Below, piece after piece: positions 58,308 to 64,000 of a stretch of DNA of 64,000 nt. Under the pieces are notes generated by a model, which worked only from the letters and a program-made list of their open reading frames with translations, had not been told where the DNA came from and made no database searches. Both the position numbers and the translations under genes were made by a program. The first letter of the stretch is position 1; every line of letters begins with the position of its first letter. The DNA is from an uncultured Ruficoccus sp. (GTDB lineage Bacteria; Verrucomicrobiota; Verrucomicrobiia; Opitutales; Cerasicoccaceae). The DNA is taken from the NCBI GenBank assembly GCA_965140785.1, contig OZ223491.1:1-64000 (forward strand), given 5' to 3'.

Positions 58308-59249
58308 ATGAAAAAACATAATCTATTTTGTAAGAACCTGATCAGCAAAATCAACAGCATCTCCCCGTTTCTAGACAATTATTATAGTGGCGTCCGGCGC
58401 TGGGGAGGGCAACTGCCTGACAATATTTTAATATTCTCACGTCTGCGTCGTAAAAAACTAAGCGCAGAACACTTATCCACTTATTTTCATCACCGCTGGG
58501 TTTTGCTAATAGCCATGGAAGGAAGCACAAAAGTACGCGTGAATAGTCGGGTAAAAAAAATACTTCCAGGGACAGCATTACTGATCCCACCCTTACATTT
58601 CCATCATTACTACGAAATTAATGACGGTGACATATGCTGGCTATACATTACGTTTGACTGGCCAGGACAACACTCGTTACCAGACAGTGAGCAAGGCCCC
58701 AATGCCCTGTCCCAGGAAGCATTGGAGCATACGTTGAAATTCATAGACCTATGGCATGATGGGCGCTTAGCAATGACAACACTGCTGTGCGCGGAACTGC
58801 TCACTCTGCTTTTCCTGAGCTTCCCCGATATTATAAAACATGGGCCTTCTACAACCGAAACCAGTGGAGAGAGCCAGTTGGTCGCCACCATAAGGCAAAT
58901 AGTATCCGAAGAACCCGACCACCCCTTCTCTATCGATGAATTAGCGGTTAAAGTTGGCATGAGTGCCAGCCATTTACGTGCTGAATTTCGGGCGGATACA
59001 GGAATTAGCTTAGGGCGTTATTTGCGTGAATGGCGCTTAAGGGAAGCCGCATTATTGCTTACTTCGGAAAATCTGTCGGTAAAAGAAACAGCAGAACGGC
59101 TAGGATACCGCGATATATACGCGTTTAGTCGGGCCTTTAGCCGAGCCATGGGCATCTCACCATCGAGCTTACACCAGCCGCAACGGGCCTCCAGTAATCG
59201 ATACGACAAGACAGGCAGCAGGCATAAACATGAGGCCCCGTCGGATTAG
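58308..59249 (+). CDS. AraC family transcriptional regulator
   Basis: GMSASHLRAEF..TAERLGYRDIYAFSRAF..SPS. Confidence 0.9.
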   Translation: MKKHNLFCKNLISKINSISPFLDNYYSGVRRWGGQLPDNILIFSRLRRKKLSAEHLSTYFHHRWVLLIAMEGSTKVRVNSRVKKILPGTALLIPPLHFHHYYEINDGDICWLYITFDWPGQHSLPDSEQGPNALSQEALEHTLKFIDLWHDGRLAMTTLLCAELLTLLFLSFPDIIKHGPSTTETSGESQLVATIRQIVSEEPDHPFSIDELAVKVGMSASHLRAEFRADTGISLGRYLREWRLREAALLLTSENLSVKETAERLGYRDIYAFSRAFSRAMGISPSSLHQPQRASSNRYDKTGSRHKHEAPSD

Positions 59250-59675
59250 TCTATAATGAACGAACCGTTGGCTAACTACGCAGGCGTTCGTCCGCTCGCA
59301 GCGACGTCAGGCTCCGGATGCGAGTGACGCGGGCGCAGGAGAGGGAATTGGATTCAGATACGCTTTTTCGCGGGTAGTTGTTATACCTGCCTAAATCCAG
59401 ACACGAGGAGGAATAGAGTTATTCTGATAACAGTAAATTGCTGCTCGTCGTGTAGAACTAAAGCTTTGACGAGTCCGTATTCAATGCGGGTCCACGGCTA
59501 ACCTCGCCCGAGTTGTTGAACTGATTGGTGAAGCTCGTCCCGGCCCCGCTGCCGACGAGATTATCCTTCCCGTCAAACACCTGCCCGATCAGGGTCCCCC
59601 CATTCCCATCGCTGTCCGTAGCCTCGCCGGTCAGGCGTCAGGCATTGCGCCCGAAAGCGCAGTGGACGATCCAAG

Positions 59676-59711
59676 AAAAAGCGCGAGCCACCCGTCGGGT
59701 GGCTCGCGCTT
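59676..59711 (-). terminator. Rho-independent terminator of the minus-strand ASKHA gene
   Basis: 15-bp perfect stem aagcgcgagccaccc/gggtggctcgcgctt ending in a T run on the minus strand, just after the stop at 59716. Confidence 0.85.
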
Positions 59712-59715
59712 CCCT

Positions 59716-59877
59716 TCAGCATACCGGGGCCAATGGCATACAGTCGATGAAGTTGTCCTCGAAGCTCGCGATCTGGTTGAGCTCGACCACGCGGCACTCT
59801 TGGAGCAGCGGAACAAGAGTCTCGTTCGCGGCCTGCAGCAGCATCACAGAGGCACCGCCGAGTGAGGCGTTGCCAAT
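59716..59877 (-). CDS. C-terminal fragment of an ASKHA/DUF4445 (RACo, corrinoid reductive activator) protein, cut by the junction
   Basis: IGNASLGGA..LL..VVELNQIASFEDNFIDCM resembles the RACo C-terminus. Confidence 0.7.
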   Translation of the reverse strand: MGNASLGGASVMLLQAANETLVPLLQECRVVELNQIASFEDNFIDCMPLAPVC

Positions 59878-61987
59878 ATAATTTGAACTATCAAACCTCA
59901 AATTAGCAGGATAATGCCTTGACATGAATTGTTCATTATGCCTTACAAGTTCGTGTCTATATTTTGGATAAAGTTTATTGAATTTTGTTTCACTAATACT
60001 AGAAATATTTCAAATTGTACGTGTTAGATAATCTTCAAAATTAAATTTTATTCCAAAGAGGGAAATTATTGTTTATAATGAGTTGCTTTGCTCTAAGGTT
60101 AAGTCAATTTTAAAAAGATAAATTTACTTGATTTTTTTTTTGTAGATAAAATTTTTTAAGGAATTTAATCATTAGCAAGTTTGTTTGAGTTTTAGTTAGC
60201 CAAAAAGGTAGTAGGCTAATTGTTTTAAAATGTAAATACAGAGCAGTGCATTCCGAATAATTTTAAAGCTGAATTATTTTCTCCAAATTTTTTCTCTTCC
60301 TCCATGCTTTAATAATTTTCATCATTTTTTTCATTTTCTTCAGAGTTTACTAAATTAAAATAAATTATCATTAAATTTAATATCATATTTTAACTTTCAA
60401 ATTCATCAATATCTTTATCAATAGAAGATCAATTATCACCATTCTCATCCTCCACTATCTCCCGACCAGAAAATAATAATTCAGCTGCTGCATTCACACT
60501 TCCTGAGCCTTTAAGAATAATTTTATACTTCAGCTATTCTGGACCTGGAAACCCTTTTTTATTTTTATAATCCTTTGGCAATTAATATATCTTCTCTTTA
60601 AATATTTCTTTACAAATCTCAGCCATTCTTTATTACTATGGTATTGAGCAATGTATTTCAAGTGAAAGAATTATGGGATAAGGATTTTGCTTAAACCCTT
60701 CATCATTAATTGTTTGGATTACATCTTGGAATAATATTTTTGAAGTCATTGTATGTCCGTGATAGATTATTGGTTCACCGTCAGGTCCGTCCCAACAATC
60801 CAATTCCACACAACGACAGCCTTTATGGAAAGCCTAATTTATTAGTATTATAATTTTAATTATTTGTTAATTTTAACAAGAGTATATGCTTTTAATGAGG
60901 ATTCGCCAATAAGTTAATCACCGAGTAAGTATGTATTATGAGAACTGTTGATATAATAGTGTGATAATGGTCGATTCATTTTCTTTAATAATATTATTAA
61001 TTACTAAACAATATTAAACTTAATAAATTATTTTTTTTTGTGGGTCAAAAATGCTAGACTAAGTGTCATCAAAAATCCAACTACAGAACATATGAAAAGT
61101 GATATTATTATGATTTTATCGAGATTTCTCTTAATATTCATCGATTCACTTTACAATAGCTTCAAGAGTTACTTCTTAATCTTTTTACTCTGTTTACAGA
61201 AATATAAGAAATTCCTCAGGAGTCATGAATGGAGCTTCAGCTTTCTTTTCTAAATCTTCATTTTCTGCACTTTTGCAGTATTATTAATAAAGAGGGGCTA
61301 ATTCCTTTTTGAATAACAATGATGAAAGAATCTATTAAAATTCATCAAATTCTATGCTATTATTGTTATTTTAATCGAATTCCTTGAAGAGCTTACTGAC
61401 GTATTTTTTGTTTGCTTTTATGTGCATTGATCGAAGCAAACTTAAAGTTTCTTTGAAATCTAGGGAATTTGAATGATCTTTATCTGCTATTGTGAATAAT
61501 TTTTTCATTAAATAATTATTAACAAGCATTTGCCCTCTTACAAATAGAATTAATTTAACAAAAAATACTTGCTTTCTATAGACCCTGTAATAAAATGCTA
61601 AATTCCTTATCAATATAAATCTCTTGCTTCTTGGTTTTCAAAGTAAAATGTTACTTCTTTATTTGAATTTAGTTTAATATTTAAGGTTTAGTCTTAAGAA
61701 AATTCCTTTTTCATTTTATACATAGGGTGATCATTTAATTCTTTTATTTGGTCTAAGGTAATTCTTGAAACTCCAAATGGCTTGCACTAAGAAAATCATT
61801 ATAAGATCATTATATTTTATGATAAAAGGAAAAGTTAAATTGCATGTTTCTTCTAAAAAAAGTATTTTTTGGATTTTAAAAAAACTTTTCCAGCCTTACA
61901 AAATTTTTCAATTTTTTAATGGTTTTTATTTCCATATTTGATCAAATTTATAGCTGATTCAAGATAGCAACTAGGAAACCCTTTCAT
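59878..61987 (-). CDS. Eukaryotic phosphoinositide phospholipase C (delta-like: PH, EF-hands, X, part of Y), intron-containing, 3'-truncated, non-standard code
   Basis: [73 protein letters not shown] introns at 61537-61568, 60983-61019 and 60834-60877. Confidence 0.95.
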
Positions 61988-62127
61988 TCCTAATAAATCA
62001 GATTTTTATTACATATTCAGATAATTTAATATGCAAATATAATTATAAGTTAAATTTGCTTTTAAAAAAAAAAACTCATATAATTTATTTTTATTTTAAT
62101 TATTTTATTTTTATTAACAAATTTTAA

Positions 62128-63351
62128 TCAAAGTTTGCAAACTCCAATAGGTAAATCTAATCCATAATCATCTGTCTTAGAATTAATGTATTCTACTTTT
62201 AATTAGGCTGCTTTCACATTTGTCTCAAATTTGCCTTTTATCATATCATTAACTACTTATTGTGAGAATTTTCCTCCTTCTTTAAGAATCTTCTTTAAAT
62301 TTTCATAAAATTCTTAAGTAAAGATGCATTTTTCTGCATTCTATGGATATAATAAATTGATTTAAAAATGTTTTTTACATTCCAATTTCCTTGGTTAGAA
62401 TTGACGGTATCTATAATGATGGCATCAAACTTTTCTCCTTTTTCTGCTTAGTCTTTAGCATATTTAGCTCCATTTTCATAGACCAATTCAAGTTTTTATT
62501 CTTTAATTGCCTATAAATATAATAAAAAATAAAAAAATAAACTTTTTCAATTTCAGCAGCATTTGCAAAGAATTTGACAACAACATCAATAATTTCTGAA
62601 TCAATATCACAAATAACAATTTTTTTAATCTTCGAAAACTGGCGAAGAAGATAAGTAGCAATAGAAGTATTAGCCCCTCCAATAATCAGAACTCTTTCCA
62701 ACTCCTTCTGTTCATCAATAATTTCCCTTGTCATATCCTTATTATAATCATTATCAATCTTTCCTATCAATTTAATCTAATCATCAATTGTTAGGATCCT
62801 CCCAAGGAATTCATTATCAAAAACACGAATTTCATGTTCTTTTGATTTTTAACGATGCACAATCTTCATATTCTTATAAATAGCTGATGTAAATTCATTT
62901 GAATTTAATAAAAATTTGTTATCGCCTCCCTTTTACTAATAAAAAGATGTTTTGCATTACAAATTGCCAAAAAATTTAGCAAAATGGGTGTAAGCTGAAT
63001 CAAGCACTTCTTATTTGCTTTACTCAAAAATATTCAAATCAAAAGAAACAAAATTGTTTTGCTTTGGGAAGCACTAACAGTTCAAATACCCATCTATAAA
63101 AACAAATTAGCAATAAAATCTTAAAAATAATAAGAACCAGCTAAAGCAAATGTAAGGGTATACTCTGTATTGGCATCACCAAGCTCTATGACCTCAGCCA
63201 CTTCGGTATTATTAGTTTTAAAGAAGTCTGCTATTTCTTTTTTGATGAGCTCTTTATTTTTGAGATCGATGATAGTGACATTCTCGTATTCCAGGAGGAG
63301 TTGAAATCCTTCTAAAGGGATTTTGTTTAATTTTACAGCTTAGGTTTCCAT
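62128..63351 (-). CDS. Eukaryotic spermidine/spermine-synthase-like protein with N-terminal extension; 3 introns; TAR read as Gln
   Basis: KSKEHEIRVFDNEFLGRILTIDD, RVLIIGG, CDIDSEII, FDAIIID, FTQEFYENLKKILKEGG; introns at 63094-63137, 62511-62542 and 62341-62378; TGA at 62128. Confidence 0.85.
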
Positions 63352-63633
63352 ATTTTTTTGATTTTTAAGTTTAAGAGAAAATTTTCCAATAATTTTTATG
63401 CAAAAACAAAATTATGCAAAAAAGATATTAATAAATCTTAATAAAAATTTATTTTAAGAATTTTCATTTTTATAAAATAATTGGTCATCAATGCTATTAT
63501 AATATAATTGCTTTAAATTTGTTATTAAGAACAATTTAAATAATACTATTTTTTATTACAGAATTAATACATAAAATTGATATTAATTCTTTTTCTTAAA
63601 TACGATAAAAAAATATAATTGTTTAAACATTTA

Positions 63634-64000
63634 TCATATGTCTGCTCCACAAAACATTGTTAATAAAGCTTATTCTTAGTTGCCCTTAAAATAATTAAAT
63701 TCTTCAATAATAAAAACATTAATTATTGTTTCCTTTATTTAATCCATAGGAATTTCTTCATCTTAGTCTTTTTCCATTACAGAAAAAATTAATCTTGTAA
63801 AATAATGGCATAATTCATCAAGAAAATCATCGCCTTCGTATTGAATTTTTATGTATTTGGATAAACAAATTTTAGATCTTAAAAACAAAAAATAGTTAGA
63901 ATATATGTTTTACAAAGTAAAAATTTCAAAATAAGATAAATTTCCATTTTTATCTTCATCTGCAATCTATTAAAAAATATGATTATTAATTTATTGGCCT
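63634..64000 (-). CDS. Eukaryotic EF-hand protein, 3' part only
   Basis: IADEDKNGNLSYFEI loop; intron 63878-63913; ends LLTMFCGADI-TGA. Confidence 0.7.

Follow-up and report, generated by a model that had tools for sequence, protein, structure and literature searches.

Ciliate DNA misjoined to a Verrucomicrobiota contig probably uses a genetic code with no dedicated stop codon

Introduction

To our knowledge, only a few eukaryotic lineages have a genetic code in which a single codon stands for both an amino acid and termination. In the karyorelict ciliates, UAA and UAG (collectively UAR, or TAR in DNA) specify glutamine while UGA specifies either tryptophan or a stop (NCBI translation table 27), and Condylostoma is described by table 28. 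Such ambiguous codes are a test case for termination that is set by the position in the mRNA and not by the codon, and a further carrier would help to sort out how often these codes arose. Here, we consider positions 59878 to 64000 of a window of 64,000 nucleotides (nt) from an assembly deposited as an uncultured Ruficoccus sp. of the Verrucomicrobiota (GCA_965140785.1, contig OZ223491.1), where a phosphoinositide phospholipase C (PLC) gene carries TAA, TAG and TGA in frame. The window corresponds to bases 1–64000 of contig C20, which measures 93,795 nt and belongs to a bin of 50 contigs and 4.36 Mb. With a probability of roughly 0.88, we consider the DNA from 59878 to the end of the contig to be ciliate nuclear DNA that was misjoined to a Verrucomicrobiota contig and in which TAR is glutamine, TGA is tryptophan or stop, and no codon is reserved for termination. 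These assignments match table 27, and the code would hence be of a rare but already described kind.

In karyorelicts, UGA predominates as stop codon, the median 3' untranslated region (UTR) measures 21–43 nt and in-frame UGA is found in 10.5–76.9% of transcripts (Seah et al. 2022, bioRxiv 10.1101/2022.04.12.488043). Condylostoma magnum also stops at UAA and UAG (Swart et al. 2016, PMC4967479). The lineages given as having all three stop codons reassigned are Karyorelictea, Condylostoma and Plagiopyla (McGowan et al. 2024, PMC11687900); for Plagiopyla frontata (Plagiopylea), which lies outside the karyorelict/heterotrich group, UAR was predicted to be glutamine and UGA to be both tryptophan and stop, as at the present locus (McGowan et al. 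2023, PMC10553269). In Zosterodasys, TGA is read as tryptophan, with other readings of TGA elsewhere (Chen et al. 2023, PMC10089648). As for mechanism, a tRNA-Trp(CCA) with an anticodon stem of 4 base pairs (bp) competes with eRF1, and termination takes place near the poly(A) tail (bioRxiv 10.1101/2023.10.09.561518). Our full-text literature search, beyond whose scope most subscription papers lay, returned no further ciliate lineage with this ambiguous code.

The karyorelict code (Parduczia, Loxodes and others) makes the same assignments as the present locus, i.e., TAA = TAG = glutamine and TGA = tryptophan or stop, with TGA as the predominant or only terminator, as is probably the case here, and karyorelicts have compact gene ends, as seems to hold here too. 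Condylostoma (Heterotrichea) likewise reads the three stop codons as Gln, Gln and Trp and terminates in a position-dependent manner, but there TAA and TAG terminate too, whereas every end that could be fixed here is a TGA. In P. frontata, internal UGA was seen in 3 of 240 marker proteins, as compared with five in each of two genes at our locus, where TGA accounts for about a third of the tryptophan codons. Table 6, used by Tetrahymena and Paramecium, shares TAR as glutamine, termination at TGA, AT-rich DNA and short introns, and the named relatives of the PLC are oligohymenophoreans; unlike here, however, TGA is never a sense codon in table 6. Among non-ciliates, Blastocrithidia nonstop (table 31) and Amoebophrya sp. 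have all three stop codons reassigned, with UGA as tryptophan. Blastocrithidia reads UGA by means of a tRNA-Trp with a 4-bp anticodon stem (bioRxiv 10.1101/2023.10.09.561518), yet its UAR is glutamate and its terminator UAA, where here TAR is glutamine and the terminator TGA.

Results

The AT-rich stretch is present in six public sequencing runs from three studies, four of which (X1, X3, X4 and X5) were compared over 58800–64000. In the labels used below and in Table 1, C refers to contigs of the bin, X to public sequencing runs and P to homologues of the PLC protein. The search for such homologues gave 1222 matches at E ≤ 1e-5 among 5.8 billion proteins, the best being 37–38% identical. Counts per alignment column refer to a first automatic alignment with 120 homologues, in which all stop codons were entered as X, while the sites in the PH domain were re-aligned iteratively with 36 homologues. 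Profile scores, in bits relative to X, were obtained with a profile of the 120 homologues from which the window sequence had been left out.

Table 1 Coordinates of the join, genes, introns and recoded or terminal codons in the right-hand end of the window, with the evidence for each.
Feature	Position	Strand	Evidence
Chimeric assembly join, Verrucomicrobiota (left) / ciliate (right)	59877..59878	.	GC switch, run contigs
PLC gene, delta-type (PH, EF-hands, X, linker, start of Y), cut by the join	59878..61987	-	homologues, spliced contig
PLC exons (seven)	61987-61886, 61852-61569, 61536-61020, 60982-60878, 60833-60395, 60349-60128, 60092-59878	-	X4 record 17
PLC intron, 33 nt	61853-61885	-	skipped in X4 contigs
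PLC intron, 32 nt	61537-61568	-	skipped in X4 contigs
PLC intron, 37 nt	60983-61019	-	skipped in X4 contigs
PLC intron, 44 nt	60834-60877	-	skipped in X4 contigs
PLC intron, 45 nt	60350-60394	-	skipped in X4 and X5 contigs
PLC intron, 35 nt, GT..AG	60093..60127	-	skipped in X4 and X5 contigs
TGA no. 1, ..MILQ[TGA]FSQ, PH domain, read Trp	61796..61798	-	W in P0001, P0003 (YLQWLS)
TGA no. 2, ..RDLY[TGA]QGIQHF, C-terminal helix of PH domain, read Trp	61610..61612	-	W in P0001 (LFWQGLHHM), P0003 (LFWQGLQHF)
TGA no. 3, ..EAIVK[TGA]IDEYQ, EF-hand region	61146..61148	-	variable hydrophobic column, L 87, I 21 of 119
TAA at invariant Gln of LLGDQLIG	60914..60916	-	Q in 120/120 homologues
TAG TAA TAA in HCSIP[QQQ]RMA, read Gln	60630..60638	-	Q in 107/120 and 119/120 homologues at first two codons
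TGA no. 4, ..ENGDN[TGA]SSID, X-Y linker	60429..60431	-	linker unalignable; codon kept in X4 and X5 spliced contigs
TGA no. 5, ..TRTI[TGA]NISSISE, Y domain, read Trp	60010..60012	-	W in P0001-P0004, P0048 (I-WNISSI)
Gene 2, methyltransferase or spermidine-synthase-like	62128..63351	-	spliced contigs X4 record 18, X5 record 20
Gene 2 introns (44 nt, about 32 nt, 38 nt)	63094-63137, about 62511-62542, 62341-62378	-	
Terminal TGA of gene 2 (...PIGVCKL)	62128..62130	-	next 90 nt GC 0.07
Gene 3, 3' part in window, EF-hand-like motif (by eye)	63634..64000	-	ORF listing
Gene 3 introns (33 nt, 36 nt)	about 63684-63716, 63878-63913	-	skips in X4 and X5 contigs
Terminal TGA of gene 3 (...MFCGADI)	63634..63636	-	coding potential stops; next 90 nt GC 0.12

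In the contigs of X4 and X5, eleven segments are skipped exactly at CT..AC on the plus strand, i.e., at GT..AG on the minus strand, and these contigs must thus derive from spliced RNA. All six intron borders of the PLC are confirmed by one spliced contig (X4 record 17), and the PLC introns have a GC content of only 0.09–0.20. An earlier interpretation of the letters alone (hereafter, the sequence-only reading) had translated the PLC as one continuous frame. Its claim that the TGA codons are part of the coding sequence stands, as all five lie in exons, but the continuous frame has to be replaced by seven exons. The intron at 61853–61885, for instance, takes out 11 codons, one TAG among them, and its removal closes a gap of 10–11 residues relative to the nearest homologues. 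Otherwise, the positions proposed in that reading for the TGA codons, the TAG TAA TAA triplet and the two gene ends were all confirmed.

Once the introns are removed, the PLC contains 34 in-frame TAA or TAG codons (35 in the first model, beside 9 CAA, no CAG and 2 TGG). The alignment with homologues places several of these codons at conserved glutamines, as had been proposed from the letters alone, in columns with Q in up to 120 of 120 homologues. In addition to the sites listed in Table 1, the TAA before the X box (YQ) falls in a column with Q in 114 of 120 homologues, and the TAG of PEQL in one with Q in 77 of 120. At the invariant glutamine of the GDQL motif, the runs themselves are polymorphic for TAA and CAA, with the X1 and X3 contigs reading G at 60916 (plus strand) and so carrying CAA. 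Glutamine also obtained the best profile score for both codons: +27.9 bits for TAA, followed by arginine at +18.6, and +6.9 bits for TAG, followed by glutamate at +3.7. For an overview of codon usage, we applied a codon model, with the scores of the three stop codons set to zero, to the 64 kb of ciliate DNA recognized in the bin (see below). The model was built without C28, a contig of an AT-rich bacterium with the standard code, and overlapping frames were removed; the resulting figures refer to predictions and not to verified gene models. Among the 8623 predicted coding codons, TAA and TAG together occur 577 times, as against 72 for CAA and CAG. The data support TAA and TAG as ordinary glutamine codons, and as by far the commonest ones.

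At three of the five TGA codons of the PLC, the closest homologues have tryptophan. The sequence-only reading had located the first two at or beside tryptophans of the PH domain, and the iterative alignment sets both on W. The neighbouring codons fit as well: the TAA just before TGA no. 1 falls on the Q of P0001 and P0003, and around TGA no. 2, where the window reads LY[TGA][TAA]GI[TAG]HF, both the TAA and the TAG fall on Q of the nearest homologues, the TAG meeting the Q of P0003 in FWQGLQHF. TGA no. 3, to judge from its column, would be compatible with tryptophan without being diagnostic. Over all five sites, tryptophan scored best in the profile (+8.6 bits), followed by phenylalanine (+3.9). 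As for the codons themselves, TGA is unchanged at all five sites in X1, X3 and X4 and at the two sites covered by X5. These contigs, which come from three studies, read TGA there and not TGG. Nor are the codons spliced out, as X4 record 17 retains all five, and no GT occurs between the flanking exon positions around TGA no. 1.

A second gene, unrelated to the PLC, shows the same pattern. This WD40 gene, located outside the window on the same contig, comprises 852 codons in a single exon, including five in-frame TGA. It was aligned, with X at TGA, to the best 150 of 176,496 matches from an exhaustive search. At residue 461 (GSIII[TGA]NLE), W is found in 271 of 341 aligned repeats and at residue 631 (TIQI[TGA]NVQ) in 176 of 226. 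Residue 48 lies in a variable column (W 62/646), only 3 rows are aligned at residue 292 (LKI[TGA]KFD), and none at residue 776. By eye, seven TGG codons occupy the same repeat motif as the TGA codons, and where a TGG column comprises over 100 aligned repeats, as is the case for six of them, W ranges from 244/273 to 697/705. Considering both genes, five of the ten in-frame TGA codons are thus in columns that are mostly or only tryptophan in the homologues, a pattern that, in two genes, is not one of chance. In the predicted coding codons, TGA is found 31 times (0.36%) and TGG 62 times, such that about one tryptophan codon in three is TGA; in karyorelicts, the corresponding range for the three codons is 0.08–2.9% (Seah et al. 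2022). That in-frame TGA encodes tryptophan is supported by these results.

TGA also ends genes. The two genes upstream of the PLC had been proposed to terminate at TGA, each before a nearly pure A/T spacer, and the GC content of the 90 nt that follow is indeed very low in both (Table 1). An mRNA-type contig of gene 2 (X4 record 18) matches the window to 62116 and then continues for 35 further letters over a masked low-complexity stretch; whether these represent genome sequence or poly(A), the 3' UTR of gene 2 is at most about 47 nt long. It should be noted that the A/T runs at 62076–62115 (intergenic spacer) and 62511–62543 (intron) are of very low complexity and were masked, such that contig alignments look cut there, and the former limits what can be said on the 3' end of gene 2. 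Gene 2 itself is without internal TGA. A conserved C-terminus is offered by the ribosomal P2 gene on contig C39, which reads ...EEEEEVDLGAGGLFGDDDF / ...KKEEEEEVDLGAGGLFGDDDF and then TGA. Its tail aligns to residues 69–113 of the human P1 chain, which has 114 residues, and the TGA therefore stands 5 codons past the conserved ..GLF, where such proteins end. In a cyclophilin gene, TGA follows 7 codons after CGQ and is succeeded by DNA of 11% GC. Gene 3 and five further predicted genes reach a TGA within 0–19 codons, after which the GC content over 90 nt is at most 0.12, and a gene that by eye resembles mitochondrial carriers ends in TGA before DNA with a GC content of 0.17. Altogether, about ten gene ends consist of TGA followed by 7–19% GC, in support of TGA as a terminator.

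The sequence-only reading had not considered how such genes came to lie in a bacterial contig, and we can add that the join at 59877/59878 is an assembly artefact. All 2-kb windows up to 60000 have a GC content of 0.50–0.66, after which values of 0.262 and 0.238 follow; at a scale of 200 nt, GC falls from 0.57 at 59701 to 0.41 at 59801 and 0.27 at 59901, the overall shift being from bacterial DNA of about 60% GC to about 25%. Under table 11, translation of the left part yields ordinary bacterial proteins, while the AT-rich part reaches the end of C20, over about 34 kb. Of the four compared runs, only X1 covers the bacterial side; its contig there (depth 3.9) is identical to the window as far as 59877 and diverges thereafter. 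From 59878 onwards, the ciliate side is found on other contigs, whose depth is 16.1 in X1 and exceeds 1000 in X3, and the X1 contig of this side likewise diverges from the window beyond the join. No contig in X1, X3, X4 or X5 bridges 59877/59878. In X3 and X5, contigs extend leftwards past 59878 by a loose, AT-rich end in which, on the minus strand and by eye, the PLC frame goes on as D-I-R-S-S-F-N-V-G-A, in agreement with the homologue motif DSSNYDP..F..G.Q. As the join is absent from independent public assemblies, it is an assembly chimera. A true insertion of ciliate DNA into a bacterium was considered and is ruled out, since both sides continue differently in independent contigs.

The DNA to the right of the join is ciliate nuclear DNA, given its GT..AG introns, the use of TAR as glutamine and the ciliate affinity of the PLC. 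In a tree, the PLC falls into a clade with the PLCs of Ichthyophthirius, Paramecium and Pseudocohnilembus and with metagenomic PLCs (SH-aLRT 100), while its place within this ciliate clade was not resolved by the tree, for which only a quick search was run. An origin from mitochondrial genes was rejected, because TAR is sense and the introns are spliceosomal.

Discussion

Some aspects of the data weigh against a ciliate code without a dedicated stop codon and should be considered when referring to the results above. The runs that gave the spliced contigs are not recorded as RNA, and we infer their RNA origin from the exact GT..AG skips. The first automatic alignment put both TGA codons of the PH domain one column beside the tryptophan column (the column next to TGA no. 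1 has W in 72 of 96 homologues, and TGA no. 2 met V in 73 of 101), and both came to lie on W only when aligned iteratively with the closest relatives. Two of the five TGA codons in the PLC and three of the five in the WD40 gene are uninformative. The terminal TGA of the cyclophilin, if read as W, aligns with W190 of bovine cyclophilin 40; this end is therefore less certain, its support being the 11% GC of the sequence that follows and the presence of a convergent gene. Lastly, no tRNA, eRF1, rRNA or poly(A) site of the ciliate was seen in the sequences analysed.

The alternative that survives best keeps the sense assignments but has a code of the Condylostoma type (table 28), in which TAA or TAG would also terminate some genes. 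A minority of such stops is compatible with the data, several coding segments have no in-frame TGA within the next 100 codons, and stop-UAA is allowed for in 1–10% of karyorelict transcripts by Seah et al. (2022, bioRxiv 10.1101/2022.04.12.488043). We found no gene end on the ciliate DNA that requires TAA or TAG, although such ends are unrecognizable from DNA alone, as TAA is so common in frame. Against this, all of the ends fixed by a conserved C-terminus or by a transcript contig, namely those of P2, the cyclophilin and gene 2, are TGA, and at about eight more ends TGA is followed at once by AT-rich spacer. We thus regard additional TAA or TAG stops as unlikely.

It is far less probable still that the ciliate uses the ordinary table 6 and that the internal TGA codons are spliced or edited out, or represent sequencing errors or pseudogenes. 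Among ciliate codes with TAR as glutamine, table 6 is by far the most frequent, and the many short introns could have been read through by eye. Nonetheless, the spliced contig of the PLC keeps all of its TGA codons, no other letter is seen at these sites in any of the four compared runs, and the codons fall on tryptophan columns in two unrelated genes that are otherwise intact and, where interrupted, spliced. Hardly credible, finally, is a reading of TGA as another residue, i.e., cysteine (as in Euplotes and, reportedly, Peritromus), arginine (reported from certain spirotrichs) or selenocysteine: both the cysteine and the arginine reading have been reported from other ciliates (Chen et al. 2023, PMC10089648) and cysteine is the commonest residue in the column of TGA no. 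5 (C 54, W 23 and Y 15 over all 118 rows), but cysteine (+2.5 bits) and arginine (−1.4) score well below tryptophan in the profile, the closest homologues have W at three sites and the WD motif has it in most repeats, while the presence of ten TGA codons in two genes, far too many for selenocysteine, excludes that residue, as do the tryptophan columns.

For a code in which TAR is glutamine and TGA is tryptophan or stop, work on karyorelicts and Condylostoma suggests how the two meanings of UGA might be kept apart. By analogy, a near-cognate tRNA-Trp(CCA), whose anticodon stem would probably measure 4 bp, would prevail over eRF1 at internal UGA and decode it, and only at a UGA situated within a few tens of nt of the poly(A) tail would termination win.

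The identity of the ciliate can be approached from its introns. None is of the very short type of Loxodes magnus, in which introns have a mean length of 19.3 nt, are mostly 17–25 nt long and in 93% of cases do not exceed 25 nt (PMC11441545); all eleven introns found here measure 32–45 nt. Introns of heterotrichs are given as 15–16 nt (PMC11441545). The short introns of L. magnus are a trait of one sequenced species and not a formal criterion for Karyorelictea. As the introns are longer than those of Loxodes and heterotrichs, the ciliate may be an undescribed carrier of the code. The phenomenon itself is of a known kind, and the organism could, on the evidence of its introns, differ from the carriers described so far. 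More specifically, the ciliate could stem from a lineage for which no code without a dedicated stop has been reported, being neither a karyorelict nor Condylostoma and reading TGA as tryptophan more heavily than P. frontata. We put this forward tentatively, and consider it possible although somewhat less probable than its opposite.

Other sources gave little to place the ciliate. No tRNA (aragorn, Rfam), telomere repeat or Rfam family was found on the ciliate pieces, a primer-site scan of the whole bin found no eukaryotic rRNA site and matched one bacterial 16S only, and no standard marker protein was detected on the 64 kb of ciliate DNA. A Pfam scan of the ciliate translations named only UCH, HSP70, TTC5_OB, a hydrolase and Sel1, with one reference in the wrong frame. 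Neither a search with a calcineurin exon (9 matches) nor the exhaustive WD40 search, which returned generic WD40 proteins only, places the ciliate, and a scan of genome contigs for relatives gave one irrelevant match of 611 nt. The nearest relatives of the PLC, P0001, P0003 and P0296–P0306, form a tight family of 13 proteins, most of them about 880–918 amino acids long. These were predicted from ORFs without interruption, on metagenome contigs that reach 73 kb, and their hosts are presumably ciliates in which gene calling needs no reassigned stop codons. Protein clusters listed for P0003 were generic PLC clusters only.

If the ciliate indeed belongs to such a lineage, it would add to the carriers of position-dependent UGA decoding and might represent another independent origin of it. 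Its assets for such work are longer introns, contigs of at least 30 kb with several genes, and deep public data, with at least one run of more than 1000-fold depth. Such a ciliate could show which features are constant companions of such codes, among them the length of the tRNA-Trp anticodon stem, changes in eRF1 and the length of UTRs.

Variation and neighbouring sequences

The runs differ from one another by single letters at 60916, 60314, 60504, 60507, 61204, 61259, 61533, 61597, 62675, 62711 and other positions, and X3 has 8 additional nt inserted behind 63559, within an intergenic spacer. These between-run differences show that several strains or alleles of one ciliate are present across the three studies.

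Outside the window, at 66880–68010 (plus strand) of C20, a TPR segment lies directly upstream of the cyclophilin domain, on the same strand and with no in-frame TGA in between. The two may form one gene, with the reverse of the domain order of cyclophilin 40.

DNA of the same ciliate kind makes up the last 30 kb or so of C39 (join near 276,000) and about the first 1.15 kb of C42 (join near 1,150). The join in C39 cuts a calcineurin A homologue after ...NFMDIFTWS, and the ciliate part of C42 holds a gene fragment that by eye resembles an RTEL1/FANCJ-type helicase. In three of its contigs, a bacterial reference genome hence carries fused ciliate DNA, about 64 kb in total, in addition to foreign bacterial contigs, and this contamination will mislead analyses of gene content, codon usage and horizontal transfer. 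The foreign bacterial contigs are C9 (44 kb, 39% GC) and C41 (20 kb, 38% GC), whose long ORFs appear Bacteroidota-like by eye, and C28 (13 kb, 28% GC), which represents an AT-rich bacterium with standard-code ORFs.

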